A DNA stretch of 64,000 nt, from positions 11,484-75,483 of IMG/VR virus record IMGVR_UViG_3300050013_000065. One strand, given 5' to 3'. A program made the position numbers and the translations under genes. This DNA is from a virus. The notes under the pieces are model-generated. The model was not told where the DNA came from, did no database searches, and saw only the letters and a program-made list of their open reading frames with translations. Positions 3,254-62,810 of this stretch are shown here, piece after piece (the stretch's first letter is position 1; each line of letters starts with the position of its first letter).

Positions 3254-4333
3254 TTGAACATCGCAGCCACAGAACTAAAGAAAGCTCTTCGGGTTTTTGC
3301 GCCAGTTCGAACCGAGTTCTACCAAATCGGGGAGCACGGAATTTCTGCCCAGGACTCCGACATCTGGGTAGTATCCGAAAGTCCATTATCCGGACTAGGG
3401 GGAATTTTCTCGGTCAACGGTAAGAAGCTGTCCCAAGTCGTAGGTCGAATGTCCGGGCAAGTTGAGATCACCAAAGAGGAGAAGCTCCTGTCTCTGAAGT
3501 CGGCGCGCGCGAAGATCGAGTTGGAAATCCAGGACATCAAGCCTCTCAAGATCCCCGATCCCCCCGCCAAGGTCCTGGAACTGGCTTCTGTCGATCTCAA
3601 GAAAGCTTTGTCGATAGCTGTTGCTTCGGCCTCCCCCAATAAGGCTTCAGCGTTCGGGGGTGTTGTCCTGCTCCAGAGCCTGCCTTTGGGAATCGAGGAG
3701 GGGTCTCCATCCGGCTATCGAATTGTGGGGACAGACGCGAACGTTCTCACCGTAGCCACCGTGGGAAACTCAGTCCAGTTTGAGTTCAAGATGACGTTGA
3801 ACCTTCCGGCGGCTGCGATAGTCCAGATAATGGACGGTACGATCTCCCTCGGAGAATCAAATACGCATCTGTACGCTCAGTCGGGGGGAATCCGTGTGTT
3901 CGCCTCCAAGCCGACCCAGACGTTCCCGAATTTTGACAGCCTTTTGTCCGTTCCTTCGAAGCTGAAGTTCGGATTCAAGACCGAGGAGTGGGTATCAGCT
4001 CTCCGCACAGTCGAGACTCTGATCGAAGAATCTGTCGATCAAGGAGGAATCGATTTACAATTCGCCGAAGGTGTGGTACAATGGAACAATACTGGAGTAG
4101 GGTCAACAGCGTCAGACGAAGCGCCCTACGAACAGATTGACCCAGACCCGCTATTTCAGCCGGTAACTGTTTCGAATCTTAGGGTTAAGGCCAAGTACCT
4201 GTCCGGATTCTTGGCGAAGGCTGGGGAAGAATCTACTTTGGGGCTGGTAGACAAGAATAAACCGATCCGACTGGAATCCGGAAATATGACTACTTTGGTA
4301 ATGCCTATGGCAGGGAAGAAGGAGACGAAGTAA
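3254..4333 (+). CDS. dnaN: DNA polymerase III beta-type sliding clamp
   Basis: 359 aa; IVGTDANVL (ATDGHRL-like), FPNF and C-terminal LVMPM are typical of beta clamps. TTG start after GGAGG. Confidence 0.78.
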   Translation: MNIAATELKKALRVFAPVRTEFYQIGEHGISAQDSDIWVVSESPLSGLGGIFSVNGKKLSQVVGRMSGQVEITKEEKLLSLKSARAKIELEIQDIKPLKIPDPPAKVLELASVDLKKALSIAVASASPNKASAFGGVVLLQSLPLGIEEGSPSGYRIVGTDANVLTVATVGNSVQFEFKMTLNLPAAAIVQIMDGTISLGESNTHLYAQSGGIRVFASKPTQTFPNFDSLLSVPSKLKFGFKTEEWVSALRTVETLIEESVDQGGIDLQFAEGVVQWNNTGVGSTASDEAPYEQIDPDPLFQPVTVSNLRVKAKYLSGFLAKAGEESTLGLVDKNKPIRLESGNMTTLVMPMAGKKETK

Positions 4334-5052
4334 TGGACGAAATCCAGACAACACCTTCCTACCTGCCCCCTCTAAACCAAGAGGATGCTCTCGTAAAAGG
4401 CAAGGAAATTGACGCACTCATTGGGCAAATCTGCTCCCACGAGGAGAGGCTTTCCCATTCCTACGCGCGCCTCGGGTCCCTACTCCGGGAGGTAAAGCTC
4501 CAGCAGTACTGGATTGCGTACGGTTTTGACCGATTTTCTTCCTACTTGGAGACGGTTCGTGAAAAAATAGATAGACGCCGGTCACAATTGTATGCTATAC
4601 TGTCTGTAGCTGAAGTTTTGCTTCCGCATATTTCTGAGTCCAAGTTGGAAGAGATTGGAATCACTAAAGCTCATGAATTGAGACGGTTGGTTCAGAACGA
4701 TGGAAATGTGCACGCGGAAGTTTTGGACCCGGATAACCAGACAGAAGATACCTGCGGGACTGTCCGGATAATGGACTACGCTCTACGCCCCAAGGTAACA
4801 GCAGCACAACTTCGGGTTAAGGTAAACGAGCTTCTTCATATTCACGAACTTCCGTCCGGGCTCTGGCTGGAGCTTCCCGGGTTCTACGCTACGCCAGACG
4901 AGAGAAAAGAAATCGATGAGTTCTGGAAGTTGGGGAAACAAGTTTTGGAGATCACGTCCGAGTCAGAACACGAAGTTCACAAAGAGGTGTTCTTGGCAGC
5001 TATTCGCGAGTGTGTAAGTTCGTGGATTCCTTTACTACAGGAAGAAAAATGA
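4333..5052 (+). CDS. Hypothetical protein, possibly DNA-binding
   Basis: 239-aa ORF with TAATG coupling to dnaN. Confidence 0.7.
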   Translation: MDEIQTTPSYLPPLNQEDALVKGKEIDALIGQICSHEERLSHSYARLGSLLREVKLQQYWIAYGFDRFSSYLETVREKIDRRRSQLYAILSVAEVLLPHISESKLEEIGITKAHELRRLVQNDGNVHAEVLDPDNQTEDTCGTVRIMDYALRPKVTAAQLRVKVNELLHIHELPSGLWLELPGFYATPDERKEIDEFWKLGKQVLEITSESEHEVHKEVFLAAIRECVSSWIPLLQEEK

Positions 5053-5255
5053 TTATTTTGGAAAAGCGGTGTCACAAATGTGGGGATACCAAAGATGCCT
5101 CGTTTTTTAACAAAGATAAAAGCTCTAAGGACGCCCTGAGCCGAGAATTTCCTCCGGACTACCAACTACTGTGCTGCAATTGCAATCGCTCAAAACACTG
5201 GGGAAATGGTATTTGTATTCACCAGCGAGAAGAAAAGGAGTCTAATGCCGAGTAA
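5049..5255 (+). pseudogene. Internally deleted HNH endonuclease remnant
   Basis: The N-terminal Zn-finger half (KRCHKCGDTK...FNKDKSSKD) is fused directly to a C-terminal FP..YQLLCCNCNRSK..G.C.HQ, with the middle missing. Confidence 0.5.
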
Positions 5256-5610
5256 AACAGTCCGCGTAGAACTCGGAGAAACCGGTCTCCCGATCCGCAT
5301 ATTCCGGGATAAGCAATGGTTAAACTACCCTACGGTAGAAATGACCAAGGCCAAAGCGGTGGGGGGAATTCGAAAGCAAGTATTTCGTAGATGTTGGAAT
5401 CCATTATCTGGAAACTTCGAATGCGAAAAGTGTGGACGAACAATCACTTGGACTTCTGGAGAAATGAACGAGAAAATCGCGAAGGGTTCTGGTGGGGAAG
5501 TAAGTTTGAGCAACTGTGAAGCGTTATGTCACAGTTGTCACACAGGAAGTCCGGATTCCGCTCACGGAGACCGGAGATGGCAAACAGCAAAATTGAGTCC
5601 GAAGGAATAA
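5245..5610 (+). CDS. HNH-family nuclease-like protein
   Basis: CEKCG...GSGGEVSLSNCEALCHSCH. The usual first His position reads NE. Confidence 0.65.
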   Translation: MPSKTVRVELGETGLPIRIFRDKQWLNYPTVEMTKAKAVGGIRKQVFRRCWNPLSGNFECEKCGRTITWTSGEMNEKIAKGSGGEVSLSNCEALCHSCHTGSPDSAHGDRRWQTAKLSPKE

Positions 5611-5612
5611 CA

Positions 5613-6131
5613 ATGGACGTTCTTAAATACAAATCGGTAATCAAGCAGGTTTTGTCCGAGCTTAAAATCCCCGCAGATCAGAGGGAAGACATGAGCCAGG
5701 AGTGTTACGTAGCCTTGCTTGAAAAGCAGTCTCACATTGAAAAACGGATTGAAGCCAAAGAGGACTACAAATATGTAGCCCAAATCTGTCGGAGAAAGAT
5801 CATGTATCTTTGGAGGACGGGGCAACACCCTCAGAGGACCAAGGAAAACCCGGGGCCGAGGTTGGTGTCTCTTTCTTTGCCCAAGATCATGCACCAAGTA
5901 GAAAAGATACCTCAACCGACCGCCGAAGTTTCGGACGAGGAGCTATACGGAGCGATTGATAGCCTTCCCCTGGATGAATACCGAGTAATTTACAACGTGT
6001 TTGTGGATGGGAAATCACAGCGAGAGACCGCCGGAGATTTTGGAATCAGCCGCCGACAGGTGGCAAATTTAGCGGATCGCGGGATCAAAAATCTGAAGAA
6101 GTATTTTGAGGTAGAAGATGGCCAAGATTGA
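5613..6131 (+). CDS. Sigma-70 family (ECF-like) RNA polymerase sigma factor
   Basis: Region 2-like REDMSQECYVALL and region 4 HTH AIDSLP..EYRVI...FVDGKSQRETA..FGISRRQV...RGIKNLK. Confidence 0.75.
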   Translation: MDVLKYKSVIKQVLSELKIPADQREDMSQECYVALLEKQSHIEKRIEAKEDYKYVAQICRRKIMYLWRTGQHPQRTKENPGPRLVSLSLPKIMHQVEKIPQPTAEVSDEELYGAIDSLPLDEYRVIYNVFVDGKSQRETAGDFGISRRQVANLADRGIKNLKKYFEVEDGQD

Positions 6132-6390: not shown

Positions 6391-6710
6391 TGGGAATCCG
6401 AAACACAGTCGAAATTATTTGTGATTATCCCGAATGTAAAGCTGGACAAAACGGCAAACCCGTGGTATACTCTTGGTGTAAGGATGATGTTGAGAGCGGA
6501 AAAGCACAAGCCCCTCCCGAAGCTCAGTATTTAGTAATCTTCAACCAGGGAGGAGTTACGAAGTCCTTCTGCTGTCAGTTACACGCTGCGAGGTATTTTC
6601 TGCCGCCTGGGTACGATATCAAGCAGACCCCGGTGGTGGACATTTCAACGCGAAAGCCCGTCGAACCTTGGACGGAACCAATTCCAGATAATGGACAGGA
6701 GGGCCAGTGA
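6390..6710 (+). CDS. Hypothetical Cys-rich protein
   Basis: CDYPEC...FCCQLH; TAATG coupling. Confidence 0.65.
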   Translation: MGIRNTVEIICDYPECKAGQNGKPVVYSWCKDDVESGKAQAPPEAQYLVIFNQGGVTKSFCCQLHAARYFLPPGYDIKQTPVVDISTRKPVEPWTEPIPDNGQEGQ

Positions 6711-7415: not shown

Positions 7416-7882
7416 CACGAAAAGCAAAGCCGAAGACTAAAGTGCAGCTTGACAAAGCCGCCGACCAGAGACTCCAAAAGACGTATAATATCACTCTTCG
7501 AGAGTACGAGGAGATGGCCAAGAGGAACAATAGATGCTGCTGGGTGAGTGGGAAACCGGCAGGAACCCGTCGTCTGCACGTCGATCACGATCATGCGTGG
7601 AAGAAGGTCAAGATCGAGACCGTCAAGGTAAACGGATTGTGGGCGGCGGCGGCTCTCTACAACGAGAGAGAGTATGTTGGTGTAAATTCCAAAAAGTCTT
7701 TGGCGGTTCTCCAAGTGAAACGTCAACTGCTGCGCGCCAGTGTCCGGGGGTTGCTTTCATATCAAATCAATGCCGGGTTACAAAAATTCGCGGATGATCC
7801 GATTCTACTGAGGGCGGCTGCTGACTACCTCGAAAACTTTCAGAAAGGAAGTCCATTATCTGGACAGGAGAAAAATGACTAA
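7412..7882 (+). CDS. Endonuclease VII-like protein (atypical)
   Basis: YNITLREYEEM...LHVDHDH...VRGLL...N.GL..F.DDP..LRAAADYL, with several Zn-ligand Cys replaced. Confidence 0.7.
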   Translation: MTRKAKPKTKVQLDKAADQRLQKTYNITLREYEEMAKRNNRCCWVSGKPAGTRRLHVDHDHAWKKVKIETVKVNGLWAAAALYNEREYVGVNSKKSLAVLQVKRQLLRASVRGLLSYQINAGLQKFADDPILLRAAADYLENFQKGSPLSGQEKND

Positions 7883-8409: not shown

Positions 8410-8855
8410 GTTGGTTCAAACCTGCCCCACCCAAACCCGATCCAGAGGTAACCTACCGAATTGGATTTGCCTGCGCTAACGGGCATGTTCAATCTGTTTC
8501 ATGGAAACAATCTATCGAGTCCGAGAAAGAAGAGGTGTGTTTGACTTGCGGACTGCGCTCTGCTGTGGCCGTCATTAAAAGGACATTCGAACCTTATTTG
8601 GTAGGTTTCTTTGCAGAGCGTTGGATCACAAGCTCCTGGTTGAGCATGACCGATGAATTTGTCCATTATCTGGACGAAGACTCTAACGTAAAACTCTCGG
8701 AAGAAATACTCACCAAGCTCAAAGTTCGAGCGGCCCGAGATATGACTCGACAAATTTCCACTGAAGAGCTTCATACATACTCTTTGGGGCTACAAGACGG
8801 GGAGACAATGACCGCTTTATGGCTGCTGGGCGAGATTCAAAAGGAGACTAAGTAA
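8406..8855 (+). CDS. Hypothetical protein
   Basis: GAGGAGG RBS; CxxGH and CxxC motifs. Confidence 0.65.
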   Translation: MSWFKPAPPKPDPEVTYRIGFACANGHVQSVSWKQSIESEKEEVCLTCGLRSAVAVIKRTFEPYLVGFFAERWITSSWLSMTDEFVHYLDEDSNVKLSEEILTKLKVRAARDMTRQISTEELHTYSLGLQDGETMTALWLLGEIQKETK

Positions 8856-10345
8856 TGCCTAAGACAACACCGGTTCCAGAAGAACTCAAGACTCGGGTAC
8901 ACGAGTGCGCCGATCTTAATCCAGAAGCGTCTCATCGATGGATTGCCAAGCAGTTCGGTCTCCACCACAAGACGGTAGATCGAATTCTCGGACAGATTCG
9001 TCACCTAAGCTACGAGGTTCTTCCGAAGGATGCGAGACCAGAAAAGACCTCTGAAGTCGAGGATATGTCCACTCCTGTAGAAAAGGAGGAGCCTGATGGA
9101 GACTGGGTACAACGGGATCGCTACGTTTACAACGGCCAAACTGACTCGTATATTACATTCCTCAAGTGCCGCCCGAAACCTCTGGTCATCAACGGTGTCA
9201 AGTTCCGGTCGATGAAAAAGGCGTATTCTGATTGGGACGGAAAACCCTCCACAATCAACGAAATTTGCCGAAGGTTTGCAATCCCCCGCGATCAGTTTCA
9301 AGAACTTAAAGCAGTACACGGCTGGACCCACGAATCTGAGCCATTTACCCGCGAGGAGATACTATCTCGGGAAGTGGACGATCTCGCTGACGACGCCTTC
9401 CAACAGAGACGGCAGGCTGTATGGGAAGGGTTCGAGAAGAAGCGCTGGCACCAGACAAAGATCGACGCTGAAAAGTGGAATGATCTTGAGCAGAACTTTA
9501 TCGTTCCGTTGCAGGACCACTTGTCTACGCTTATCCCTGCGTATACTCCCCCTGTGTTCAATTTGAAGTCTCCTCGAAATCCCTTTGCAGTAGTCACCAG
9601 CGCGGGAGAACTTCACTATGGAGGTTCGGGTTGGGAAGTCGAGACCGGAGAAAACTTCAGCCGCAAAGAAGCAGAGGAGCGTCTTGTCTACGCCAGGACG
9701 AAACTTTTGGAGGACGTGGCGGACAAGGGAAGGCCGGATAAGTTTTTCTATACCTCTGGTAATGATTTCTTCACGATAGACAATGACCAAGGTGGGACGA
9801 CTCGCGGAACTCCACAGGAACTGGACGGAACTGCCGCACAGATTTTCTCAGAAGGCGTGGACCTTGCGTTCCGAGATGTTGACATGCTTCGAAGTGTGGC
9901 CCCAGTCCTGATACTTTTTGTCCCCGGCAATCATGATCGGCTGCTGAGCTTAGCCTTGCTGAAATGCCTCCAGGTCAAGTATCAATCGGACCCCGCAGTG
10001 GAAGTTGTGTTCTCTGCCAAGACTCGGGCATACGCTTGCTACGGAGACACCCTAATGGGGTTTGCCCACGGAGACGGGGCGCTCAAACCTCCGCAGTACA
10101 TGGCAACAATGGCGAAGGAAGAACCGAGGTTGTGGTCCGAGACGATCTACCGTGCTTTCTTCACCGGACATCTGCACCACGAGGTTGTTCAAGAGTTGGT
10201 CGGGGGGACTCACTACCAGATGTCCTCTTTAAGGGGAGCTGACCGATTCCATGAGAGGAATGCGTACTTGGCAGATGCCGCTTTGTCCAGCTACATAGTT
10301 GACAGACACCGGGGTGTTACTGGTACAATTCAGACGAGGGTTTAG
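8855..10345 (+). CDS. HTH + calcineurin-like metallophosphoesterase
   Basis: GELHYG, GNDFF, PGNHD, FAHGD and GHLHH motifs, with N-terminal HTH-like segments. Confidence 0.8.
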   Translation: MPKTTPVPEELKTRVHECADLNPEASHRWIAKQFGLHHKTVDRILGQIRHLSYEVLPKDARPEKTSEVEDMSTPVEKEEPDGDWVQRDRYVYNGQTDSYITFLKCRPKPLVINGVKFRSMKKAYSDWDGKPSTINEICRRFAIPRDQFQELKAVHGWTHESEPFTREEILSREVDDLADDAFQQRRQAVWEGFEKKRWHQTKIDAEKWNDLEQNFIVPLQDHLSTLIPAYTPPVFNLKSPRNPFAVVTSAGELHYGGSGWEVETGENFSRKEAEERLVYARTKLLEDVADKGRPDKFFYTSGNDFFTIDNDQGGTTRGTPQELDGTAAQIFSEGVDLAFRDVDMLRSVAPVLILFVPGNHDRLLSLALLKCLQVKYQSDPAVEVVFSAKTRAYACYGDTLMGFAHGDGALKPPQYMATMAKEEPRLWSETIYRAFFTGHLHHEVVQELVGGTHYQMSSLRGADRFHERNAYLADAALSSYIVDRHRGVTGTIQTRV

Positions 10346-10372
10346 TCCAGATAATGGACAAAGGAGACCTGT

Positions 10373-10786
10373 ATGAAGGTTTATCTAGCTGCTAGGTACT
10401 CTCGAAAGAAGGAAATCAAGTCTTTGGTGCCGATTCTTCTTGAGCATAATATCGAAGTGACAAGTAGGTGGCTCGAAGAAACCGGGTCAGATACGGCCCA
10501 TCTCCACGAGTTCACTCCAAAGTTCTGCCGCCAAACTGCTTACATCGATTTAGAGGACATCGATAAAGCGGACACGTTTGTGTTCTTCTCCGAAGACCCA
10601 ACTATCGGTATCCCTCGCGGTGGTCGCCACACCGAATTTGGGTATGCTCTGGGTACCGGTAAACGACTTATAGTGATTGGTGGAGAAGAAAATATCTTCC
10701 ACTACCTGCCTCAAGTTGTCCATTATCCGGACTTAAACTCCTTCTTAGAAGGGGAAAGGATAGACGATGTCATTGCTTCCGACTGA
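10373..10786 (+). CDS. Nucleoside 2-deoxyribosyltransferase / dNMP N-glycosidase-like protein
   Basis: MKVYLAARY...DLEDIDKAD...GGRHTEFGYA. Confidence 0.75.
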   Translation: MKVYLAARYSRKKEIKSLVPILLEHNIEVTSRWLEETGSDTAHLHEFTPKFCRQTAYIDLEDIDKADTFVFFSEDPTIGIPRGGRHTEFGYALGTGKRLIVIGGEENIFHYLPQVVHYPDLNSFLEGERIDDVIASD

Positions 10787-11524: not shown

Positions 11525-11555
11525 TGGTCCAGATAATGGACAGAGAGGAGGTATT

Positions 11556-11772: not shown

Positions 11773-12012
11773 ATGAAACAAACAGTTAGAAAATACGTGG
11801 GCGTGTGGGTTGGATACGATAATCCCGACGAACTGAAGTTTGGGGCGTTGCCAGAGTTGCTTGAGACGGATTTTGGAGGGAACGGAACCATTCCAGCCTC
11901 AAGGGCTGCTGTGAAATACTACCCCATTGACATTGTAGTAGACCCCTCTGAATTGAACGGCTTTGATAGTTTAGAAGCTGCTCGGGGCGCGCTCAACCAC
12001 AAAAACAAGTAG
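11773..12012 (+). CDS. Small hypothetical protein
   Basis: 79-aa ORF ending just before the terminator. Confidence 0.5.
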   Translation: MKQTVRKYVGVWVGYDNPDELKFGALPELLETDFGGNGTIPASRAAVKYYPIDIVVDPSELNGFDSLEAARGALNHKNK

Positions 12013-12027
12013 TCCAGATAATGGACA

Positions 12028-13189: not shown

Positions 13190-16100
13190 GGGCTGTTTTT
13201 TCCGTTGGATTCATTTGGTCATAAAGACGAAGGTATTCCTCTCCCGGCAGTCTGGAAGCTCTAGTGTAGAGAGACGCTAGACTAGAATCCATTCCTTGTG
13301 TTTTCTTTATGTTTTCGGTTATTTTCTTCAGATCATCTTGGTGCAAGTCTCCCGAAGCATACATTTTGTAAACGTCAGGCATGGTCATTTCTCCTGAGCG
13401 TACCTTGTCCTCAAAACCCATGATTACTCTGTGTCTGGCCATTTGCGCCGGGTCTAACGCCCCGTCTGGATTATGGGAGGCGGCAAGCTCAGAGGCTAAC
13501 TTCTGAGCCGGGGTTGCGTACGTCTGCGCAGTACCGCCGACAGATTTCCACACCTGTCCAGGATTGCCGACAGAAGGTCCCGTTCCGGAAACCATCTGTC
13601 CGATAGTTTGTGCAGGAATCGGGGCCATGTTTCTAAAAACATCACTCCAAAGCTCATCGGGTTGTAGCTTTCTTCCAAACTGGTCACGTTGGGACAGGAG
13701 TTCTTCTCCCGTGCGCATGGTCGGTGATAGTCTCCCCTTGATGAATCCCACTGGATCGGATGCTGCGTGGAGTAGATCGGTAGGCAGGGTCCTGATTCCG
13801 AAGACGGTTTCTTTACCCTCTTTGTTCTTTACAGCAAGACCGAAGGGGGCTTCATTGTGGAAGTTTCCTGTCGAAGCGTAGTTGAGCACACGAGCTATTC
13901 CCCACAAACCTAGAGCCATCTTGGCAACTTGGGCGCGACCTAACCCGCCCTCATCTTTGTTAAACAGATTAGCTCCGGAGCGCATTTCTGCCTCTAGCCA
14001 GTCCGGAGCGAGTAGTAACAAACGGCCCCAATCTTGATTGGTAGCTGACCGTCCCATCTGTCTCCAAGGAATTCCTCCGAATGTATTATTTGCGTGGGTG
14101 GCCGCAGCTTTTGCAACATGATCGTCTGACCAATCTGGATGGGCCTCTCGGTATCGGTCAAACATAAGTTCGTAACCACGCGCTTTAAGGGCAGGGATAT
14201 AGCGTTTGAACAAGAACGATTGGTACCAGTCCATAGCATTAGACAGAGGTTTCCCGACTCCAGGGATGAGACGAAGAATTCCGCCACCCGCAGCGACACC
14301 TTCAGAATGGTCCTGCAAGGATTTGTAATCTACTCCTAGTTGGAGGTTATTGCGAACCCCTACATTTATCTTTGTGGGTGAATTAGGGTCGAGCGGGTCT
14401 ACTTTGGCTCCAGTTAGAATGTCCGGCCCAGTAATGTGGAAAGGGTTAACCCCGACCATGACTCCGCGTAGTGCTTCTTGGACCATGTGGAACGGAGATA
14501 GAGACAGCAACGTCTCCTTCATTTTAGTCCCCACGCCGAGCAAAGCTTTCCCCACAGCGCTACTTGCGACAGCAGACGGTTCCAGACCCAAACGGTTCTT
14601 CAGATACTCGGCAAACTCCGGGTGAACGCGGATATCTGACCGTACTAGAATGTTATGTCCGGCAGAGTCGTTAGTTACGAAGTTCCAACCCTTCATTGCG
14701 TTATTGTTCAGGCTGATGTAGTCTTGTGGGTCCCACGCATAAATCTTCTTCTGGGCCTCGTTAAACTCCTTGAGCCCCGAGAAGTCCTTATTGTTTGCCA
14801 TCGACTTCAGATACATGATGTCGGTCGAGAGTTTATTGTTCCCAACTTCGTCGTACTGAGCTTCTTTTCTGGTGGCTTGCTCTTCCAGTTTTTCGATAGC
14901 CGCTTGGATATTCGATGGATGGACATAGGGAGTCAGGTCCTTGATGGTTCCTTCGTCCAGAAATCTTTGAAGGTCTCCTGATTTGTCCAGTTGCTGGACT
15001 ACTGAATCTGCTATGTTGATTTTACGAACCCGATTTGGGTCGATGAAGGTCTTTGGGTCCTCGCCGTTTTGTCCGGACACAACTTGGCCTTGTCCTGAGA
15101 GCACTACCGCAGGGCGACCATCTGACCCACGAGTAAAGGAGTCTCGGAGAGTATCAATTAGCTGCTTGTTGGCCGCCGCTTTGATGAGTTCTCCGCGACC
15201 TTTGGCCGTTACAGAAACGGGATCAAAATCAATCGGCTTCGGAGATTTCAAAAGCGCTGTCAAGTGAGAGTCGTACACACGTTGACGAGCCATCGTAACC
15301 TCTGTAGCGAACTTGCCCTGCTTGGCTTCAGACGCAACAACCTTGCCCAAAGGATTTAGGTCCTTGTAGGTACGGGTCATATAGTCTTTGACGAACGAGT
15401 GCAACAGGTCGTTGGACGACCCGATTTGGAAATTACGCGCTTGTTCTTCTCTCAGAACTTTGGCCGCGTCGAGTTCGCGGTCTGACAGTTCTCCGTTGGC
15501 AACTCTCTTCAAGGATTCAAGAACGGTGTTCTGATAGGAAGTAGGAAGGTCTTTGAGTTTGTTATCGGCAATCATCTGGGGAAGATTATCGGGAAGTCCA
15601 TTATTTGGACTAACCGGCCCAACATCTAGTCTATCTTCTTTTCCAAGACTCTCGGCCACGGCGTTGTACCACTGCGCGGCCTTGATTTTATCCCCACCCG
15701 TAACCACCTGATGAAACACAGAAGCGAGTTCAAGTTCTTTCTGTGCTTTTACGTCGGCTTTTGGGCCAAACACCTTCTCCATAAATCCAGGAGTTTCGTG
15801 TCCGAGAATTCCCCGAACGCGGTTGTCTAGGTTGATGGATTCTTGTTCGCCAATTGCATGTTGAACTTCTCTTTCTTTGTTGGCTCGGTCCAGTGCCAAA
15901 AACTCGTCGTTAGGCCGGAACTTGTCCGTCTCAAGAAGAGGCTTGAACAACTCGCCTGCTGAGTGCAGGGCGTGAGGCATTCCCAAAATTCCCAAAGCCC
16001 CGCCCGCAAAGGCTTCCGTTCCGTATTCCCACGCTTTGTCGGTATCTCCTTCTTTCAGAGCGTCGAGGAATCGAGGAGACATAGCCGCTGCTGTTTCAAA

Positions 16101-17042
16101 CTGCTGGAGGGTAAACCCAGCATTCAAAACAGCGTTCGCAGTCTTGGCCATTCGGGCAGTAGCCGCGACGGGTAGATCGGGAATCGTGTGACGCAGGACT
16201 TGGAACGCCCCGTTTTCGAGCATGTTCTTGGATAGCAAATCTTGCTCGGTCAGACCGTTGTCGTATAACGCTTTCTGAGCGCGCTTCCAAGTATCGACAT
16301 CTGCTCCTGTTTCGCGTACGGCGTCCTCGACCGGATGAAATCCAGCTTTGGCTCCGGCAACTGTGTCACTGGTTTTGCCCAGAGCTTCGAGTTCTTCGGG
16401 GGTGAATTTTCCAGATTCCTTCAGGGCGTTTTGGATCGCGGGCGTACCAAACTCTGCGTCTCGGTTGAGCGGAGACACGAGTTTTCTAGCCCTGTCCAGA
16501 AGGCCCATATCGTGGCCTCCTGCTTCCAGAGCTTGTTGGATGACTGGGTCTACTGACTTTGCTTCCTTGAGAGCACCTAGAGCCGCTTGCGAGCCTTTGA
16601 CAGCGTCGGCGATCTCAGTGGCAGACAGTCCGGCTTCTTTGAGAGCAGTAGCCCCCGCACTTTCGATCAAACCACCCGTTCCGAAGGTAGCCGCTGTTAA
16701 AGCTAGACTATAGGGCGCTGTAAATCCAGACGCGATATGCTCAACAGCGCGCTCGAATCCACCAGCTCCCTGACGTTCTTCGGGAATCCCAAACAAACTT
16801 TCTGTAAGCGGGGTTGAAAAGAAATCATGGGCGCGTTTGTACCACGGCTGGGAGGAGTCTTGGTAGATGTGTTGAGCGGGTTCGGATGGTTGAGAAGTTT
16901 GTCCAGATAATGGACCAGAAATTGATCTTCCCCCAAAAGCGGCAAACGGATCAGAGGAAGAAGCGGGAGTCGTCTCATTTTCCGTGTTTTCGGGAGCAGA
17001 AATCATTCGACCGCCGAATTGTGCAAAAGGATCGTTAGTCAT
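13056..17042 (-). CDS. Large internal virion / DNA-ejection protein (1328 aa)
   Basis: Largest and last gene of the virion block; DPFA.FGG N-terminal repeats; position matches podovirus ejection proteins. Confidence 0.6.
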   Translation of the reverse strand: MTNDPFAQFGGRMISAPENTENETTPASSSDPFAAFGGRSISGPLSGQTSQPSEPAQHIYQDSSQPWYKRAHDFFSTPLTESLFGIPEERQGAGGFERAVEHIASGFTAPYSLALTAATFGTGGLIESAGATALKEAGLSATEIADAVKGSQAALGALKEAKSVDPVIQQALEAGGHDMGLLDRARKLVSPLNRDAEFGTPAIQNALKESGKFTPEELEALGKTSDTVAGAKAGFHPVEDAVRETGADVDTWKRAQKALYDNGLTEQDLLSKNMLENGAFQVLRHTIPDLPVAATARMAKTANAVLNAGFTLQQFETAAAMSPRFLDALKEGDTDKAWEYGTEAFAGGALGILGMPHALHSAGELFKPLLETDKFRPNDEFLALDRANKEREVQHAIGEQESINLDNRVRGILGHETPGFMEKVFGPKADVKAQKELELASVFHQVVTGGDKIKAAQWYNAVAESLGKEDRLDVGPVSPNNGLPDNLPQMIADNKLKDLPTSYQNTVLESLKRVANGELSDRELDAAKVLREEQARNFQIGSSNDLLHSFVKDYMTRTYKDLNPLGKVVASEAKQGKFATEVTMARQRVYDSHLTALLKSPKPIDFDPVSVTAKGRGELIKAAANKQLIDTLRDSFTRGSDGRPAVVLSGQGQVVSGQNGEDPKTFIDPNRVRKINIADSVVQQLDKSGDLQRFLDEGTIKDLTPYVHPSNIQAAIEKLEEQATRKEAQYDEVGNNKLSTDIMYLKSMANNKDFSGLKEFNEAQKKIYAWDPQDYISLNNNAMKGWNFVTNDSAGHNILVRSDIRVHPEFAEYLKNRLGLEPSAVASSAVGKALLGVGTKMKETLLSLSPFHMVQEALRGVMVGVNPFHITGPDILTGAKVDPLDPNSPTKINVGVRNNLQLGVDYKSLQDHSEGVAAGGGILRLIPGVGKPLSNAMDWYQSFLFKRYIPALKARGYELMFDRYREAHPDWSDDHVAKAAATHANNTFGGIPWRQMGRSATNQDWGRLLLLAPDWLEAEMRSGANLFNKDEGGLGRAQVAKMALGLWGIARVLNYASTGNFHNEAPFGLAVKNKEGKETVFGIRTLPTDLLHAASDPVGFIKGRLSPTMRTGEELLSQRDQFGRKLQPDELWSDVFRNMAPIPAQTIGQMVSGTGPSVGNPGQVWKSVGGTAQTYATPAQKLASELAASHNPDGALDPAQMARHRVIMGFEDKVRSGEMTMPDVYKMYASGDLHQDDLKKITENIKKTQGMDSSLASLYTRASRLPGEEYLRLYDQMNPTEKTALMPLTLQTRKKYIAKAMKNLQPQERLKDPTFLRYLNMAPEQSPF

Positions 17043-17062
17043 TCCCTATTCTTTCTTTTATA

Positions 17063-19712: not shown

Positions 19713-19755
19713 CCACGCCTACAGAAAATAAGCAGTCCAGATAGTGGACAAAAAC

Positions 19756-25584: not shown

Positions 25585-25600
25585 TATCTGGATTTTTCGG

Positions 25601-36212: not shown

Positions 36213-36344
36213 TTGATTCCTTAGTCCATTATTCGGACAAGTTGTTGCGGGTGTTCTCGATATCTCACGTTTGGTTTTACTGAGAGACCCCGAGACCCGT
36301 GTACCCGCTCTGCGCATTACTACGTAGAGACACCCGCACGTCGT

Positions 36345-39957: not shown

Positions 39958-40093
39958 TATTCGGACTCCTTCTTCGGAGTGATATTCCAGACCCATCCAG
40001 AATTGCAAGCAGCCAAGTGCTCCAAAGGAATCTGGTTGGGCGGGTAGATCACACCCTCTTTGTAGATTCTCGGAACTCCATCAGTTAGCCGCT

Positions 40094-46214: not shown

Positions 46215-46303
46215 TCCTCTTGATATAATCCAATATCAACGGGTAGGTGTTTAAGGAAAAAGTATACGTTATTTCTTAGTGGAATTGTCCATTATTCGGA
46301 CTT

Positions 46304-47093: not shown

Positions 47094-47878
47094 TAGTAGT
47101 CGTCATCCCTCCAATCGTCGTAGTCGTACTCTGGCTCGTTTTCTTCCTCTAGTTTTTCCGGAGGGATGATGTCGGTTCTCACACTCCACTCCGGCCCAGA
47201 AAAGATTTTCTCTAACGCTTTCTCAGGGTTCTTGAGGGCTTTGCGGTATTCCCGAACGCCCACAAAAAGTTTATTGATCTGGTCGTCTGAGAGAGCGTCC
47301 AGACCTTCCGCCGGGTACGCGTAGCCCCCGATAGACTTTCTTTCGTCCTCTACCTTTTGGTAAAGTTCTTCTTGTGTATAGGAGGGGGTGAACTCTTCTT
47401 CCGAGTTTTGGGATGTGGGAAATTGCGTTATTCTCCCGTCCGGCCAGAATCTTGTGCCCGCAGAAGACCATCTATTAAACGAAGGCTTTGCGCGCCATTC
47501 CGCGTAATCTTTGTCTTCCGGGAGGAAAATTCTTTGGCAGACAGTACAGATTCCAACAGCCGCACCCGTATCCAAAGTGTGCCAGACGATGCTCGTCCTT
47601 CCAAAGGTATCTTGCATTTCGCTTAGAGGATTACAGCCAGCAACGTGGGGGCAGTTGTCTTGCTCGTCTTTCTTGTAACGCTCTTGTCTTTCTCGTAATT
47701 CTTTCGCTAGTTTTCTAAACGTAGATTCACGAGTTTCTTCTTCCAGGAGCGCCTGCGCTTTTCTCTTGAATTCTTTCAGAAAATCCTCTAGTGCGGAAAG
47801 AAGAGGCTGTAACAAATCTTCTAACTTTTGGGCCATCGTGTCTCCTGCATCAATCCGATGCCTCGGGGGTTTGTCCAT
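47093..47878 (-). CDS. Hypothetical protein with Cys/His Zn-binding domain
   Basis: CPHVAG...IVWH..D.G...GICTVC.R; paralog of 34160-34768. Confidence 0.7.
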   Translation of the reverse strand: MDKPPRHRIDAGDTMAQKLEDLLQPLLSALEDFLKEFKRKAQALLEEETRESTFRKLAKELRERQERYKKDEQDNCPHVAGCNPLSEMQDTFGRTSIVWHTLDTGAAVGICTVCQRIFLPEDKDYAEWRAKPSFNRWSSAGTRFWPDGRITQFPTSQNSEEEFTPSYTQEELYQKVEDERKSIGGYAYPAEGLDALSDDQINKLFVGVREYRKALKNPEKALEKIFSGPEWSVRTDIIPPEKLEEENEPEYDYDDWRDDDY

Positions 47879-48944
47879 TATCTGGACGGTTTAGTTGGGT
47901 GTCTATCCAATCGGCTATTTGGCGGTGTTCGGCGGCGGTGCCCACGTTCTTGATTCTGTTTGCTCGCCAACTGATTACCGCAACATTTCCGGGAACGTAT
48001 CCGAGTTCGGGGATGATCTTGTCTAGAGTCGGCGAACTGTCTTGCATCTTTCCAAGACCGGGCCTGATAGGTATTCCGAGAATGGGACAAATACTGGGAA
48101 TGAGAAAATCCTCTTTTGTGATAGAGAACGGAAATCCACCTCTCTTTGCCCGCCCTTTCGCGCTAGCGGTAAGCCGGTACAAATGCTTTTTAACAGCCGG
48201 AGTTGTCTCAAATACAAAAGAAGAAATACCTTCGATCCAGTTGGCAATCAGCCGGTGTTCTTTAGCCGTCCCGTCAGTCTTTAAAGTATTCGCCCGGTAG
48301 CTTATTACTGCGACATTTTCCCGAATGTATCCCAACTCAGGAACAATTCTATCCAAACTTGGAGATTCATCGTGATGAACTCCGGTCCCCCGTTCTAACG
48401 GTATCCCCAGAATAGGGCACAAGCGGGGAATGACCACATCTTCCTCCACCAAAGAAAAGGGTATATTATTCTCTTTGGCGCGGTTTTTAGCGGCATAAAA
48501 AATAGAGTACGAGGGTCTCTTCCGTCGCTTATCTTTCTGTTCTTCTAGAATGCGAGGCTTATTTTCCTCGTAAAAATCTTTACTTCTCGCAATATTTTTA
48601 TCTCGGTTTATGACGTGACGAGATCGACGATATTGCTTTATTTCTTCTGAGTGGGTTTCGTTATACGCTTTTTCTGCTTTGCGAATAGAGTCTCTATTTT
48701 TTAGATTATATTCTCGATTTTTAGCGAGTATTTCTTCTTTGTTCTCCGCGTAGTACTCTCTTCTTCTCCGGGAAAAGCAGGATTTACAGTCGTTTCGAAA
48801 CCCATCTTTCTTGCTTAAGTCTTTGTAAAACTCTGTTAACGGTTTAACTTCGCCGCACTTAGAGCAGCGTTTCATCATGGCTTCTTCTGTCATTTGGCTC
48901 ATCCTGAATATGAGGTAGGGCTTTGGGGACGATGATTCAGGCAC
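47850..48944 (-). CDS. Free-standing HNH-type homing endonuclease with tandem nuclease-like domains
   Basis: Zn finger plus two CPILGIP...SP.LD.I.PELGY...NVAVIS.RAN..K domains. Confidence 0.8.
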   Translation of the reverse strand: MPESSSPKPYLIFRMSQMTEEAMMKRCSKCGEVKPLTEFYKDLSKKDGFRNDCKSCFSRRRREYYAENKEEILAKNREYNLKNRDSIRKAEKAYNETHSEEIKQYRRSRHVINRDKNIARSKDFYEENKPRILEEQKDKRRKRPSYSIFYAAKNRAKENNIPFSLVEEDVVIPRLCPILGIPLERGTGVHHDESPSLDRIVPELGYIRENVAVISYRANTLKTDGTAKEHRLIANWIEGISSFVFETTPAVKKHLYRLTASAKGRAKRGGFPFSITKEDFLIPSICPILGIPIRPGLGKMQDSSPTLDKIIPELGYVPGNVAVISWRANRIKNVGTAAEHRQIADWIDTQLNRPDNGQTPEASD

Positions 48945-49005: not shown

Positions 49006-49013
49006 CTGTTTTC

Positions 49014-56074: not shown

Positions 56075-56102
56075 CGGGCCTCGTCCAGATAATGGAGCGC
56101 TG

Positions 56103-56400: not shown

Positions 56401-56811
56401 TTATCCTCTTGATATTGCCGCAGGCGGGAAACCCGGTGCGGGATTTTGTTTTGGTGCAGAATTCAGAGCAGACTTGCTCCACGGGAAGGATGGTTTAGGA
56501 GAAGGTTTGTAACTGGGGAGGCCAGCGGGAGAACTGTCCGGAGGGGGAGCGGACCACCCGTTTGGGCGATCTACTCGGAGGTGTGGCTGGAAAGTAATAC
56601 CGAATAATTCGTACGTACCGTTATTTACAACGTCAGACGACTGCTGTGGCATCTTTCCAATAAATTTCTGACCCGTCGGTGCGTTCCATCGATTCGGCTG
56701 GCAAGGGTCGCAAGAGTACTCATCAAGGACCTCGCCGTCATCGTCCGTTATCTGGACAAATAGTTTCACGCTACCCCCAAAATCCGGCCCCAAGGACGTT
56801 TGGCAGCCCAT
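56401..56811 (-). CDS. Hypothetical protein (start uncertain)
   Basis: Fills the gap after the terminase gene. Confidence 0.5.
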   Translation of the reverse strand: MGCQTSLGPDFGGSVKLFVQITDDDGEVLDEYSCDPCQPNRWNAPTGQKFIGKMPQQSSDVVNNGTYELFGITFQPHLRVDRPNGWSAPPPDSSPAGLPSYKPSPKPSFPWSKSALNSAPKQNPAPGFPPAAISRG

Positions 56812-58867
56812 ACGGCGTCTGAGTTGATGCTTCTGGTTCTGGTTGGAATAGATCGGCTGTTGGCATAATTGGCTGTTCGCTATTTATGATGTTTCCGTTA
56901 TCGTCCATCCATGATCCGTTCTGCGCCATATAGTCTTCGTTGAAGAGTTCGTTCCATCCTATTTGATCTATGCGGGAGAACATCTCTACGTTGTTTTCGA
57001 CTATGGCTTGGGTGGCGCGGGGGGCATACCGATTGGGCATCTGAGAGATGACATCGGGTATATCATCGTGGTGATGCGAGACCAAACATTTGGCCCATTC
57101 ACTATAAAAGACTTCCAGATTAGGTTCTTTGGGGGCCATGCAGGCATTCAAGAATTTTAGACGTCCCTCGGAAATCCAAGGGTACATCGACCGCATTCGG
57201 ACGCGCTTGGCATCTATTTGATTGTCGGGAGTTACCCAGTCAATATGAGAGCACAACTCAATTACGCGCGCGTCTCTTGTTCTGAGCGCTGTCGAAATAA
57301 TCGTAGGCTCCAAGAAACGAGACCCGGCGGCATCTTCAATTCCAATAACAAATGGATGCTCTTCTACGGCTAGATCAACTACGGCTTGGGCGAGGGTGGA
57401 GTGATTGAAGCGGTCCCGAACAATCTTGCGAACGTATCCGACCGTTTTCTTGTTGCCGGTCTTCTCTCCCTTGGAAGTAAGTTCATCTTCTTCTGTCCAG
57501 ATAATGGACGCGCCAGTCGAGTAGTCTCTACCTTTTTTCTGGCTGAAAGCAAAATCCCAAAACTGGCAGCAAGGTCCTTCTCGGGGAAGCATCTGATACG
57601 GAACAGTAGCCCGGAGCATCATCATTCGGTCAAACTCTACGTCACTCGTAGTCTGGGGGTTCTGGTTAAGCTGCCCCTCTGTGACTCTCTCGTTCTTGGT
57701 AAACTTTCCGACGAAGAACGAGTACGTAATGAGGTTGGGAACAAGCAGGGAGCAACCCTCTTCCCCTGCTTCTTGGTACGTTACAGGGCGACCCTCTCTA
57801 GACAGCTTATCAATTATTTCCGGCTTAATCTGACAGGCTCTACCAATAACAATGTCAACATTGAAGGTCTTGTTGTGCAGCTTCTTCCAGTTTGGACCTT
57901 CTTGGACTACTTCAATTTCTCCGTTGTTTTGGAACTTGTCTACTAATTTTCCGTAGTGATCCATTTCGTGGTATCTAGTACCAACGAATTGCAGAAAATA
58001 CCCATCCCCGCCGGGGACTAGCAGGTTTTCTACTAGGTCTAACTTTTCGGAAACACTTTGACACTGCGTTTCAGTTTCTGTGTTTTTATCAGAGACTGCG
58101 TCATCCGCTTTGATGACCTCGTAGTGTTGTCCGGATTTTGTTTTTCCCACGGACGACGCCGTTACTGTCGCCTCTTTGCGTTTTACCTTTTTGCGGGACC
58201 ACACTGGGCAGGTAAAGACATTTCCTTTGCGCATATCCTTTTCTGGGCAGCAGTATTCTGGCCAGAATAGATTCATCAGAGTAGGTTCATCTTCTCTTAG
58301 AACAAAGAATGCTTTTACCTCTGATACGAAGCCAGAAGACAAGCTGGCCTCGGCTGTTAGGTACAGAAGTCGTATGTGGGGGTACGCCAATACCCATTGA
58401 ACCGTGTCAATATGATCCGACCAGCTCTTGGCGCATCCGCGAGGCCACAGCAATACTCTTGTTTTAACTTTGCTGAGTTTGTGGATGGGAGTCTTGGGGT
58501 CCTTTTGGACATACATATCGAAAACAACGTCATAGGTCGGGTCGAGAAAAATATTATCTGCGACGGGTTTAATTTCTCCCGTTGTGCTGAGAGAAATGAT
58601 GTCCCATAAGAAGTATTTAGCCAACCACTTGATATCAAAAATACACCGCCGACGAACTTCTTTCCCCGCCCGCGAGTTGGGTACGTGATCTACTCCCAAC
58701 TTCATCTCATTCTCAAGATCGGGTCGTATTTCTTGCAGAAAGTTGTACAGGTCTTCGTTTGATATCAGGGAAGCTCCTGAATAAAATTCCTCTGGGCGGC
58801 TGTCGAGCAGGTTCGGATCTGTCCCATTCTTTATGATGAGTTCGTCAAACCGGTCTAAATTGTCCAT
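56771..58867 (-). CDS. terL: Terminase large subunit
   Basis: LWPRGCAKS (Walker A-like), HYEVIKADD (Walker B), VGTRYH..D.YG, and nuclease motifs FWDFAFS and HDDIPD. Confidence 0.85.
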   Translation of the reverse strand: MDNLDRFDELIIKNGTDPNLLDSRPEEFYSGASLISNEDLYNFLQEIRPDLENEMKLGVDHVPNSRAGKEVRRRCIFDIKWLAKYFLWDIISLSTTGEIKPVADNIFLDPTYDVVFDMYVQKDPKTPIHKLSKVKTRVLLWPRGCAKSWSDHIDTVQWVLAYPHIRLLYLTAEASLSSGFVSEVKAFFVLREDEPTLMNLFWPEYCCPEKDMRKGNVFTCPVWSRKKVKRKEATVTASSVGKTKSGQHYEVIKADDAVSDKNTETETQCQSVSEKLDLVENLLVPGGDGYFLQFVGTRYHEMDHYGKLVDKFQNNGEIEVVQEGPNWKKLHNKTFNVDIVIGRACQIKPEIIDKLSREGRPVTYQEAGEEGCSLLVPNLITYSFFVGKFTKNERVTEGQLNQNPQTTSDVEFDRMMMLRATVPYQMLPREGPCCQFWDFAFSQKKGRDYSTGASIIWTEEDELTSKGEKTGNKKTVGYVRKIVRDRFNHSTLAQAVVDLAVEEHPFVIGIEDAAGSRFLEPTIISTALRTRDARVIELCSHIDWVTPDNQIDAKRVRMRSMYPWISEGRLKFLNACMAPKEPNLEVFYSEWAKCLVSHHHDDIPDVISQMPNRYAPRATQAIVENNVEMFSRIDQIGWNELFNEDYMAQNGSWMDDNGNIINSEQPIMPTADLFQPEPEASTQTPYGLPNVLGAGFWG

Positions 58868-58875
58868 TATTTGGA

Positions 58876-59058
58876 TTACTTCTTTCCTTTGCGACTTTGC
58901 CCGGACTCAGATAACGCCACAGCGATTGCCTGTTTTGGGTTCGTGATCTTGGGTCCTTTCTTGGACCCTGAGTGCAGTTTTCCTGCTTTAAATTCTTCCA
59001 TCACGCCCGTAACGGCTTTCTGCTTTCCAACTTTAGTAGTTGGTTTTCGGGTTGGCAT
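58876..59058 (-). CDS. DUF6496-like small basic protein
   Basis: VMEEFKAGKLHSGS..GPKITNPKQAIAVALSE. Confidence 0.75.
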   Translation of the reverse strand: MPTRKPTTKVGKQKAVTGVMEEFKAGKLHSGSKKGPKITNPKQAIAVALSESGQSRKGKK

Positions 59059-61071: not shown

Positions 61072-61106
61072 AATTATTCCTTTGTCCAGATAATGGACGG
61101 GTTATG

Positions 61107-61747: not shown

Positions 61748-61755
61748 GCGATCCT

Positions 61756-61977
61756 CTACAACTTAAAATGTTTTCTAATAAGTGCTTTGATAGCACTTAC
61801 TTGCGCTTGGTAGTGTACTCGGACAGAATCCTCGGCCACATCACGAGCAGCCAGAGAATCGCCCAAAAAGTTGTTCAAGTCGGTCTCGATTTCCTTGATC
61901 CAAAGACTCCGATCAACCGCGAACAGAACCGCTAGAACAAATAGAACGCCACATACTGCTTCGATGAGAGTGTCCAT
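61756..61977 (-). CDS. Small membrane protein
   Basis: N-terminal transmembrane segment; GGAG RBS. Confidence 0.55.
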   Translation of the reverse strand: MDTLIEAVCGVLFVLAVLFAVDRSLWIKEIETDLNNFLGDSLAARDVAEDSVRVHYQAQVSAIKALIRKHFKL

Positions 61978-62022
61978 TTGGTCTCCGTGCGGGGGTCCGA
62001 AGACCCCCGTGGGTTTGATTGG

Positions 62023-62670
62023 TTAGACGCGGTCGATGCTCAACTCTGTAACCACAAAGGACGTGGGAACGGTAGTAGCAAACGTGAACGACGGATAAAA
62101 GTTCAGATCGTTCTGGTTCAAGCTGGCCACGGTTGCAGCCGTATTTGCCGTGGAAATGCTGACACCCTTCTGATAGGTGGTAGCTGCGTTCGCAATAGCC
62201 AACTGTTTGGAAACAGAGTCCCAAACATACTGTGCGGACAAGATAATGGTTCCAGAGGTGCTGTTAGCAGCCGTCGAGGTTCCGGTAATCATCTTGGTAA
62301 CGCCGGTTCCGGTCAGGGCTGTAACCACGCTGTATGCAGACGAAGTAGGTCCGCCCGCAAGAACCGCATTGGTTGCCTGATACAAGTTCACTAGAATGCT
62401 GGTGTTAACCGAAGCAGCCGTGGTGAACTTGAGGGCCAACTTGATCTCAAACGGGTGGCCGTCATACACAGACCCAGCAATATCAGGAGAGGGAGTAACA
62501 TACATCACGCTGGGGTAAGTAGACGTGGATAGGGGGAAAACGGGAGAAGGCAGTCCGGGATAAACTCCGGAAGCAGTAGGGGCGATGAGCGCCTGTTCGG
62601 TACCGGCAACATACGAAGTTACAGTAAGAGGATAGTTCTGGAAGCCGACTGATGTGTCTTGACGAGCCAT
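62023..62670 (-). CDS. Putative virion structural protein
   Basis: T/S/A-rich; shares G.PF, NLYQAT and VWD.VS..L with 36345-37037. Confidence 0.55.
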   Translation of the reverse strand: MARQDTSVGFQNYPLTVTSYVAGTEQALIAPTASGVYPGLPSPVFPLSTSTYPSVMYVTPSPDIAGSVYDGHPFEIKLALKFTTAASVNTSILVNLYQATNAVLAGGPTSSAYSVVTALTGTGVTKMITGTSTAANSTSGTIILSAQYVWDSVSKQLAIANAATTYQKGVSISTANTAATVASLNQNDLNFYPSFTFATTVPTSFVVTELSIDRV

Positions 62671-62810
62671 TGTATTGATTCCTTTGGATATAGGTTGGGG
62701 ATGGTAGTACTTTAGGACCTAGTGGCCCCGGCGCAGTTTCGTACTGCCCTTACCTTGGCCGCATGAAAACAACTCATGGCCGAGATATTTGTCCATTATC
62801 CGGACTAAAA

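Follow-up and report, generated by a model that had tools for sequence, protein, structure and literature searches.

A dispersed 15-base near-palindrome in a peat-soil phage and related phages, possibly a DNA site for a phage-encoded protein

A 15-base word recurs about once per 1.5 kb along a 64,000-nucleotide stretch of an uncultured peat-soil phage genome (the window, bases 11484-75483 of the single 75,483-bp virus record IMGVR_UViG_3300050013_000065, for which CheckV estimates a completeness of ~70%). The word is a near-palindrome with the refined consensus GTCC-R-R-N-TAATGGAC, counted here in the exact form GTCCAGATAATGGAC, and selection clearly acts on it as nucleic acid and not as encoded protein. 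We tentatively read it as a cis-acting duplex-DNA site for a sequence-specific protein encoded by the phage clade, a reading that we consider plausible though short of probable. Positions are those of the window unless given as genome positions.

Enrichment of the word

An earlier note on this window, made from the letters alone, had described at least 16 exact and about 22 near-exact copies, ~38 in all. The 16 exact copies are present as claimed, in both orientations, against 0 in 100 dinucleotide-preserving shuffles. Allowing up to 2 mismatches to GTCCAGATAATGGAC gives 34 window copies where the shuffles predict 0.12, so that near-exact copies number 18 rather than 22; three further copies (34804, 35242, and 41573) match the refined consensus and bring the total to 37. 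When a family copy is defined as GTCC-NNN-TAATGGAC with no more than one mismatch across the 12 fixed positions, the whole 75-kb record holds 20 exact and 45 family copies, and the reversed control word is found 0 times. A fifth-order Markov model whose training genome retained the copies predicts 0.02 exact copies, and shuffling synonymous codons while keeping the proteins lowers the total from 44 to ~24, with most coding copies lost and the residual ~24 mostly outside the shuffled codons. A codon-aware or Markov background, one of two explanations that the earlier note named as fatal to its claim, thus does not account for the word. The other, an adapter or assembly artefact, is likewise rejected, as at least 15 sequencing runs on peat or permafrost, drawn from many studies, contain the segment 3000-12500 and dozens of IMG/VR contigs carry the motif.

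Lineage variants, conservation, and distribution

An exact-word scan of IMG/VR returned many multi-copy contigs, nearly all of which share proteins with the clade at 45-98% identity. Four long relatives (70-110 kb) hold 61, 65, 30, and 52 family copies, or 0.4-0.75 per kb, and 0 copies of the reversed control. Pooled over the five genomes there are 253 family copies, on which the statistics below are based, with gene positions taken from our own crude gene calls. TCC, GGA, and A9 are invariant in all 253, and position 5 is always a purine. The site is less palindromic than first described, with positions 5-7 varying by lineage and TAAT fixed opposite them. The dominant centre is AGA in G000 and G001, GAA in the complete 110-kb G002, and AGG, GGG, or GGT in G004, and an orthologous site shows each lineage's own variant.

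Of 91 orthologous comparisons, 60 retain the site, the flanks averaging 70% identity. The earlier note had proposed comparing orthologs to see whether copies arise by substitution or by insertion, and in the aligned cases substitution without indels is the origin of the copies; for aligned coding copies, a mobile 15-mer that inserts itself is thus rejected. The copy at 10718 has no counterpart at the orthologous place in three distant relatives, and at the terL copy (57495) distant relatives have similar codons, in both cases without an indel. The claim that selection acts on the nucleic acid is borne out by the use of all open frames, the dependence on synonymous codons, the origin by substitution, and the retention at ~70% flank identity.

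The bacterial genomes searched do not share the enrichment. None of five whole acidobacterial genomes is multi-copy, no genome among 401 of the class Terriglobia exceeds 2 matches, which is the control level, and a GTDB-wide scan gave single matches only, among the matches listed. No prophage copy was seen in the 401 genomes; this set includes the unpublished G304, with one chance-level match, and the conclusion is independent of it. A host-wide word of the HIP1, DUS/USS, or Chi type is therefore rejected among the bacteria searched, and the HIP1-like iterated palindrome that had been suggested fails because the word is not enriched in them. A Nitrosopumilaceae genome (L164 2099-3997) has nine same-strand near-copies, 162-351 bp apart, which seem to belong to repetitive coding sequence with no relation to the phage.

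Genomic context and orientation

The copies are strongly concentrated at gene junctions, with 139 of the 253 intergenic or spanning a gene end against 40 expected (3.5-fold), and 85, about one third, deep in genes against 180 expected. Coding copies occur in all five stop-free frames, in agreement with the different frames listed in the earlier note, and the sixth frame uses a T8>A variant that avoids the stop. Start-associated copies number 73. At 18 copies the motif ATG, in the 3' arm, is itself the start codon, with a ribosome-binding site just upstream, and the motif TAA can be the stop of the upstream gene. Another 55 are wedged between a stop codon and a Shine-Dalgarno (SD) sequence, ending 5-23 nt before the start, and have little preferred orientation (31:24, 56% sense). 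A few stand 24-45 nt upstream of a start, with a second, GGATT-looped hairpin after them. This second leader element, between the motif and the SD, has a variable stem and a GGATT(A/G/T) loop; it is found in the window at 34768-34804, 35206-35242, and 47836-47873, and also upstream of homologous and other genes in the four relatives.

Overall, sense copies outnumber antisense copies by 166 to 87 (66% sense, P = 8e-7). Copies deep in confident coding regions stand at 44:19, against 0.9:1 for near-miss sequences. The sense share differs by variant (A6 78%, G6 58%) and by genome, from ~50% in G004 to 20:0 in one 35-kb block of the complete relative. The absence of copies from the bodies of tailspike and endonuclease genes is descriptively true, but with 5 edge copies against 9.6 expected (P = 0.08) the accumulation in long-resident DNA that the earlier note read from it is not statistically established.

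A duplex-DNA site and its alternatives

A DNA target is favored over an RNA hairpin because antisense copies are equally canonical, the arms do not covary, and the flanks do not extend the stem. Perfect matches at the 12 fixed positions make up 68% of antisense and 67% of sense copies, and orthologous retention does not differ significantly between them (21/36 antisense against 39/55 sense, P = 0.26). The covariation test that had been proposed finds none across 253 stems, and arms that are invariant and never covary argue for base-specific reading and not for stem maintenance. Position 5 is A or G irrespective of the transcribed strand, and a requirement for a G.U pair is disfavored because G5 copies are not more sense-biased than A5 copies (P = 0.23); the strand test of G.U against A.C is non-discriminating, since its counts (83 vs 49) mirror the general 2:1 bias. 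The flanks tend towards mirror images (Y W ... W R) and are not complementary within a site (pair (0,16) 52 vs 76 expected), with no extension of the stem into them, which fits two half-site preferences and not a longer stem. Orthologous sites with lineage-specific centres are as expected if the sites track a trans-acting reader.

We infer from these statistics that a protein binds the word. Such a protein, acting as a dimer or through two domains, would contact GTCC and GGAC, the invariant arms spaced by about one helical turn, and would sense the A/T-rich, purine-biased centre, whose three left-hand positions shift together in each lineage. Sites would be parked where their cost is lowest, in stop-to-SD gaps and dispensable intron hairpins, or else in coding sequence by codon choice. 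Binding could then serve as a genome-wide brake or organizer rather than a promoter set, and the 2:1 co-orientation with transcription suggests a directional contact with transcribing RNA polymerase, as with stoperators. Among the roles listed in the earlier note, a distributed phage-protein site with stoperator-like features is accordingly the one that we favor, and the RNA tag is weakened.

Several observations weigh against a DNA site. The centre is asymmetric, with TAAT fixed on one side and RRN variable on the other, so that a simple symmetric dimer is insufficient. A 2:1 sense bias, including the excess deep in coding sequence, where near-miss sequences stand at 0.9:1, indicates that the transcribed strand matters, and an RNA role would account for this bias too. 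The RNA hairpin is predicted to fold at -5.5 kcal/mol at 37 C and -8.6 at 15 C, and the group I intron model RF00028 aligns two copies (41573 and 42774) as P8 hairpins, below its gathering score. Spacing between copies is near random (coefficient of variation 0.76-1.0), and a regular architectural lattice is rejected. Protein families that might read such a site are also lacking: ParB_N (PF02195) is absent from the five genomes, including the 100% complete 110-kb relative, HTH_3 has no match above the cut-off in the five genomes and one sub-threshold match in this record, and Y1_Tnp has no match in this record.

As the earlier note stated, the window shows no evident cognate protein; it offers only a candidate, an ECF-like sigma factor gene at 5577..6131 (+) with a region 4 match and homologues that also carry region 2. 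This sigma factor is present in the three relatives that hold its region and is most divergent where the centre variant differs (82% identity in the AGA relative, 36-42% in GAA-rich relatives); the parallel is weak evidence, because divergence also tracks overall relatedness. In relatives, a tyrosine recombinase is a further candidate. It is found in four of five relatives, in a part of the genome missing from this record, and no integrase is present in this 70%-complete record. The recombinase gene carries copies of the word itself and adjoins a family A DNA polymerase, within a long array of tiny co-directional genes (G002:11535-16266, G001:88479-89603, G004:50660-51772, and G005:321-758).

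The alternative that the word acts as RNA is one that we rate as rather unlikely. Sense transcripts would form a 5-bp stem with a G-N-U-A-A pentaloop, matching a boxB or an MS2-type operator in size and shape and bound by a phage RNA-binding protein that controls translation, processing, or antitermination at junctions, and hairpins abutting the SD or containing AUG would be translational operators. The predicted fold, the 73 start-associated copies, and the sense bias with its 20:0 block all fit, as do a purine 5 that is always opposite U11 (A-U or G.U), a variable position 7 that would be the N of a GNRA-like loop, and the copies that stand in for GUCC-GAAA-GGAC tetraloop hairpins at P8 of the capsid introns. 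Yet the 34% of copies that are antisense, whose loop would be UUAUC, are no less exact or conserved, the sense orientation holds no excess of G5 copies, about a third of copies lie deep in coding sequence far from starts, and those wedged before the SD are nearly orientation-neutral; neither the compensatory changes nor the single orientation of an RNA element were found. It is also conceivable, but improbable, that a single protein (or pair) reads the word both on DNA and as a sense-strand RNA hairpin, coupling transcription braking to translational control at ~70 gene starts. Reader and site centre would then co-evolve like an immunity system, in a lineage without ParB or a classical repressor fold. 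A narrower version, in which this tailed phage has an MS2-like network of translational repression with the sense copies as its operators, also stands.

Other explanations have less in their favor. It is very unlikely that RNA polymerase with the phage ECF-like sigma factor uses the TAATGGAC half as a single-element promoter, as in phiEco32-type podophages: the sigma gene, an SU10-type adaptor, the sense bias, a TAATG core in common with phiEco32 gp36 and phage 7-11 promoters, and the structured leaders that follow copies 24-45 nt upstream of some genes are all consistent with it, but 45-65 copies per genome compare with 6-8 promoters in phiEco32-type phages, a third of the copies are antisense and a third inside genes, the dyad arm GTCC is unexplained, no partner element occurs within 45 nt, and a start 6-9 nt downstream at stop-motif-SD junctions leaves almost no leader. 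We consider equally slight the chance that sequence-biased repair, conversion, or nicking, perhaps via homing-type endonucleases, maintains a functionless word. There are at least 9 homing-type endonuclease genes, aligned copies arise by point substitution from similar sequence, and each lineage has its own dominant variant; against this, the junction enrichment is strong, the orientation bias opposes the neutral supply of near-miss sites, and persistence across relatives at 45-50% protein identity would require one and the same drive to be kept in all of them. We know of no such drive mechanism for a 15-mer. Least credible to us is that the copies are recombination joints, either tyrosine recombinase sites or short identical linkers for homologous exchange, that shuffle gene cassettes. 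Homology with contig G005 at 99.6% identity stops 4 nt beyond the copy at 62791, and at the copy at 39090 one X5 DNA contig loses homology exactly there and another has extra letters; copies flank some small genes, a recombinase is present in relatives, and comparable events are described for the Cluster O repeats and for PeSLs (PMC4351075, PMC2839356). Homology breaks, however, are no more frequent at motif junctions (38%) than at motif-less ones (40%; odds ratio 0.91, P = 0.70), and active sites in essential genes would be destructive. The known core sites of tyrosine recombinases are moreover far longer than 5-bp arms.

Positions of individual copies

The clamp-like gene (3254-4333) holds an antisense GTCCGGATAATGGAC at 3381..3395 (-), identical in relative L050, and an exact sense copy at 3821..3835 (+), retained in L050 and L084; a sense GTCCGGATAATGGAC follows in gene 4333-5052 at 4762..4776 (+), and its ortholog site has each lineage's own variant. 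Exact antisense copies are deep in gene 8406-8855 at 8661..8675 (-) and in terL at 57495..57509 (+), where the word reads VHYLD, and an antisense GTCCGGATAATGGAC is in the 3' part of gene 10373-10786 at 10718..10732 (-). The gene for a 1328-aa LPD-like protein carries a sense GTCCAAATAATGGAC at 15596..15610 (-), and an exact antisense copy at 16901..16915 (+) is in the 5' part of open reading frame (ORF) 13056-17042 or upstream of its true start. Copies at or near gene starts include GTCCAGAAAATGGAC (T8>A), antisense near the 5' end of gene 20267-21031 at 20946..20960 (+), ATCCAGATAATGGAC at the start of gene 25219-25584 at 25579..25593 (-) and identical in L042, an exact antisense copy within the opening codons of the tailspike-like gene 30219-33014 (931 aa) at 32974..32988 (+), and GTCCAGATAACGGAC in the first codons of gene 56401-56769 at 56743..56757 (-). 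Exact copies are also found at the 3' ends of two endonuclease genes: one is antisense in the endonuclease VII gene 7412-7882 at 7851..7865 (-), followed by AGGAG and the start at 7897, and the other, in gene 47850-48944 at 47873..47887 (-), is 37 nt upstream of the next start and is followed by the leader hairpin.

Among junction copies, TTCCAGATAATGGAC at 6682..6696 (+) is in a stop-motif-SD-start arrangement with the start (6707) 11 nt on, and exact copies overlap the stop of the exonuclease gene (8855-10345) at 10345..10359 (+), with an SD and the start 10373 following, stand between stop 11524 and start 11556 at 11527..11541 (+), and precede AAAGGAG and the start 19365 at 19337..19351 (+). 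Others are GTCCGAATAATGGAC at 36224..36238 (-), 12 nt before the start of gene 35949-36212, an antisense GTCCAGATAATGGAG between two genes at 56083..56097 (+), 9 nt before the start of a 901-919-aa gene, and an exact intergenic antisense copy at 61084..61098 (+), 13 nt before the start of gene 60757-61071 and identical in three relatives. The internal TAATG does supply start codons at junctions, as the earlier note proposed. The exact copy at 12012..12026 (+) begins on the last base of the upstream stop and its ATG (12021) is the next start, GTCCGAATAATGGAC at 39952..39966 (-) gives the stop and start of adjoining small genes, and in ATCCAAATAATGGAC at 58862..58876 (-) the motif ATG is the terL start codon. 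One GTCCGATTAATGGAC, at 34804..34818 (-), is 36 nt upstream of start 34768 and followed by the GGATT-loop hairpin and an SD, and another, at 35242..35256 (-), is in a duplicated leader upstream of the paralogue 34910-35206. The remaining intergenic copies are GTCCAGATAGTGGAC in a convergent gap at 19735..19749 (+), an exact copy at 39090..39104 (-), GTCCGAATAATGGAC upstream of gene 45039-46214 at 46287..46301 (-), and GTCCGGATAATGGAC at 62791..62805 (-), 6 nt from tRNA-Gly; a weak TTCCAGATAATGGAT with 2 mismatches is at 5399..5413 (-). The contexts named in the earlier note, in the clamp-like gene, in terL, and beside a tRNA, are found.

The capsid gene is in pieces (40339-45011), and several copies lie between them. 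A metatranscriptome contig (818 nt, depth ~90) joins 41400>42208, 42405>43765, and 43858>44849, whereas three other runs yield DNA contigs that lack these joints; at least 3 copies are in stretches removed from RNA, because the RNA contig skips those stretches. The joints are consistent with spliced group I introns or, alternatively, with an intron-less relative, between which contigs cannot tell. Rfam RF00028 (group I) matches 41536-41696 with 27 bits and 42739-42902 with 18 bits, both below the gathering score; at gathering thresholds Rfam finds tRNAs only. The P8 hairpins are GTCCGAAAAATGGAC at 41573..41587 (-), in a stretch skipped by the RNA contig, and GTCCGGATAACGGAC, with positions 5 and 11 as G-C, at 42774..42788 (-), and the same hairpin in relatives is GTCC-GAAA-GGAC. 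An exact copy at 41032..41046 (-) is likewise an intron hairpin, which in paralogous introns of relatives is GTCC-GAAA-GGAC. Further exact copies are in a non-coding part of the split gene at 40380..40394 (-) and, at 40686..40700 (-), in a 325-bp optional-intron stretch (40577-40901) that is absent from DNA of the X4 and X5 strains and 3 nt shorter in the X10 version; a weak GTCCAGATAACGGGC is in an intronic stretch at 42418..42432 (+). In X5 an 803-bp stretch (41401-42202) with an HNH ORF (41422-42057) is replaced by ~272 nt.

The carrier phage and its gene content

The phage has a gene set that includes SSB, a PD-(D/E)XK nuclease, a primase-helicase, a clamp-like protein, a repair exonuclease, a portal, a terminase, and eight tRNAs. 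No close cultured phage relative was found, and the best protein match is to a Tunturiibacter jumbo phage at 43%, a match that does not identify the host. An SU10-type adaptor gene (33016-33726) and the ECF-like sigma factor together hint at a distant link to phiEco32/SU10-like podophages. There are unusually many homing-type endonuclease genes for 75 kb, at least 9, among them HNH/EndoVII family paralogues and a GIY-YIG with a helix-turn-helix; they are at 1283-2161, 7412-7882, 12197-13189, 25637-26365, 37087-37905, 41422-42057, 43868-44737, and 47850-48944 of the window and at genome position L225 1144-1653.

A UvrD-like helicase is split into two ORFs, L225 (genome) 3880-4914 with the N-terminal domain and 5599-6423 with the C-terminal domain, separated by ~700 bp with small ORFs, and a motif copy at genome 5590 provides the second half with its start codon and the ORF before it with its stop. 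Two large proteins of 1328 and 597 aa (13056-18856) have no Pfam, PHROG, or significant PDB sequence match, and atlas neighbors of the 1328-aa protein carry LPD (polyvalent protein) domains. The N-terminal domain of a MazZ-like dATP/dGTP diphosphohydrolase, adjoined by a weak nucleoside 2-deoxyribosyltransferase-like match, is encoded at 10373-11081. A Z-genome is not indicated, because PurZ is absent from the five genomes, and this region is possibly related to another DNA or nucleotide modification. Strain differences are also seen elsewhere: in X5 the endonuclease-portal junction region (48053-49534) is swapped for 1428 other letters, and in three runs a 172-bp stretch of a tailspike-like gene (55555-55728) is swapped for 10 letters.

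Comparison with known systems

Repeats of this kind are known in other phages and are just as unexplained there, and the present case is informative in that a deep clade offers lineage variants, a measurable strand bias, and three contexts, namely junctions, intron hairpins, and coding sequence. With lineage-specific variants across a deep clade, the reader could be traced by covariation. The phage is abundant in metagenomes of peat and permafrost, settings in which next to nothing is known of phage regulation, and a reader, if found, would both open a way into gene control in phages that infect uncultured soil bacteria and yield a compact, orthogonal protein-site pair.

REP/RAYT elements are rejected, with about a third of the copies coding and no Y1_Tnp match in this record. 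Docking sites for ParB or KorB clamps differ in that no ParB_N is found in the five genomes, the spacing is irregular, and the word is not a full palindrome. Lambda and P22 carry roughly two boxB copies in each genome, located in nut sites and in one orientation. The word resembles boxB as a hairpin of 15 nt with a 5-bp stem, whose pentaloop is purine-rich and begins with G, but it is present in 45-65 copies, of which one third are antisense. The promoters of phiEco32 gp36 (tAATGTAtA) and phage 7-11 (beginning GTAAtg) (PMC8948821) are unlike a word with 45-65 sites, a third of them antisense and a third intragenic, with no partner element. PeSLs (PMC2839356) share some features with the word; shuffling cassettes of this type are not supported by the near-equal break frequencies given above, although there are two exact strain-level cases.

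The start-associated sequences (SAS) of Cluster K phages and their extended counterparts (ESAS; PMC3203893) are short elements directly upstream of many starts, for which the authors found little support for mRNA hairpins. The likeness is in start-adjacent conserved elements and in inverted repeats with a subcluster-specific consensus; SAS, however, includes the ribosome-binding site and has one orientation, whereas the word is apart from the SD, in both orientations, and also deep in genes. The stoperators of Cluster A phages, the sites of the L5 repressor (PMC9283540), have a near-absolute orientation, are functionally required, and belong to temperate phages with a cognate repressor. As with stoperators, the word forms dozens of short sites in gaps and genes that are asymmetric, have a transcription-correlated orientation, and have a lineage-specific consensus. 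Its orientation is only 2:1, and 31:24 at stop-motif-SD junctions, its arms form a dyad that stoperators lack, and, in place of a cognate repressor and an established temperate lifestyle, the clade offers only a tyrosine recombinase in relatives.

Among published repeats, the nearest counterpart is a 17-bp dyad found in Cluster O mycobacteriophages, 5'-TGTTCGGNNNCCGAACA (Cresawn et al. 2015, PMC4351075), with 34 copies, both intergenic and coding, and a 14:6 lean in orientation; there are >30 copies per ~70-kb genome, the repeat is absent from the host, and no function or reader is given. The two are alike in copy number, in the split among intergenic, gene 5'-end, and coding positions, in an A/T-rich centre, and in orientations that lean ~70:30, and in both the sites are mostly shared positionally among relatives, with occasional copy-bounded indels. 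Our word thus has the general characters of the Cluster O type: tens of copies far above chance, mixed contexts, both orientations, and conserved places. They differ in that the arms are 5 bp here and 7 there, and that the spacer is largely fixed and asymmetric (TAAT) here and NNN there. Lineage variants extend here over a clade at 45-70% protein identity, in contrast to one tight cluster, and copies here also serve as P8 hairpins of introns and provide stop and start codons. The Cluster O phages have a Mycobacterium host, whereas the phages described here are of peat or permafrost origin.

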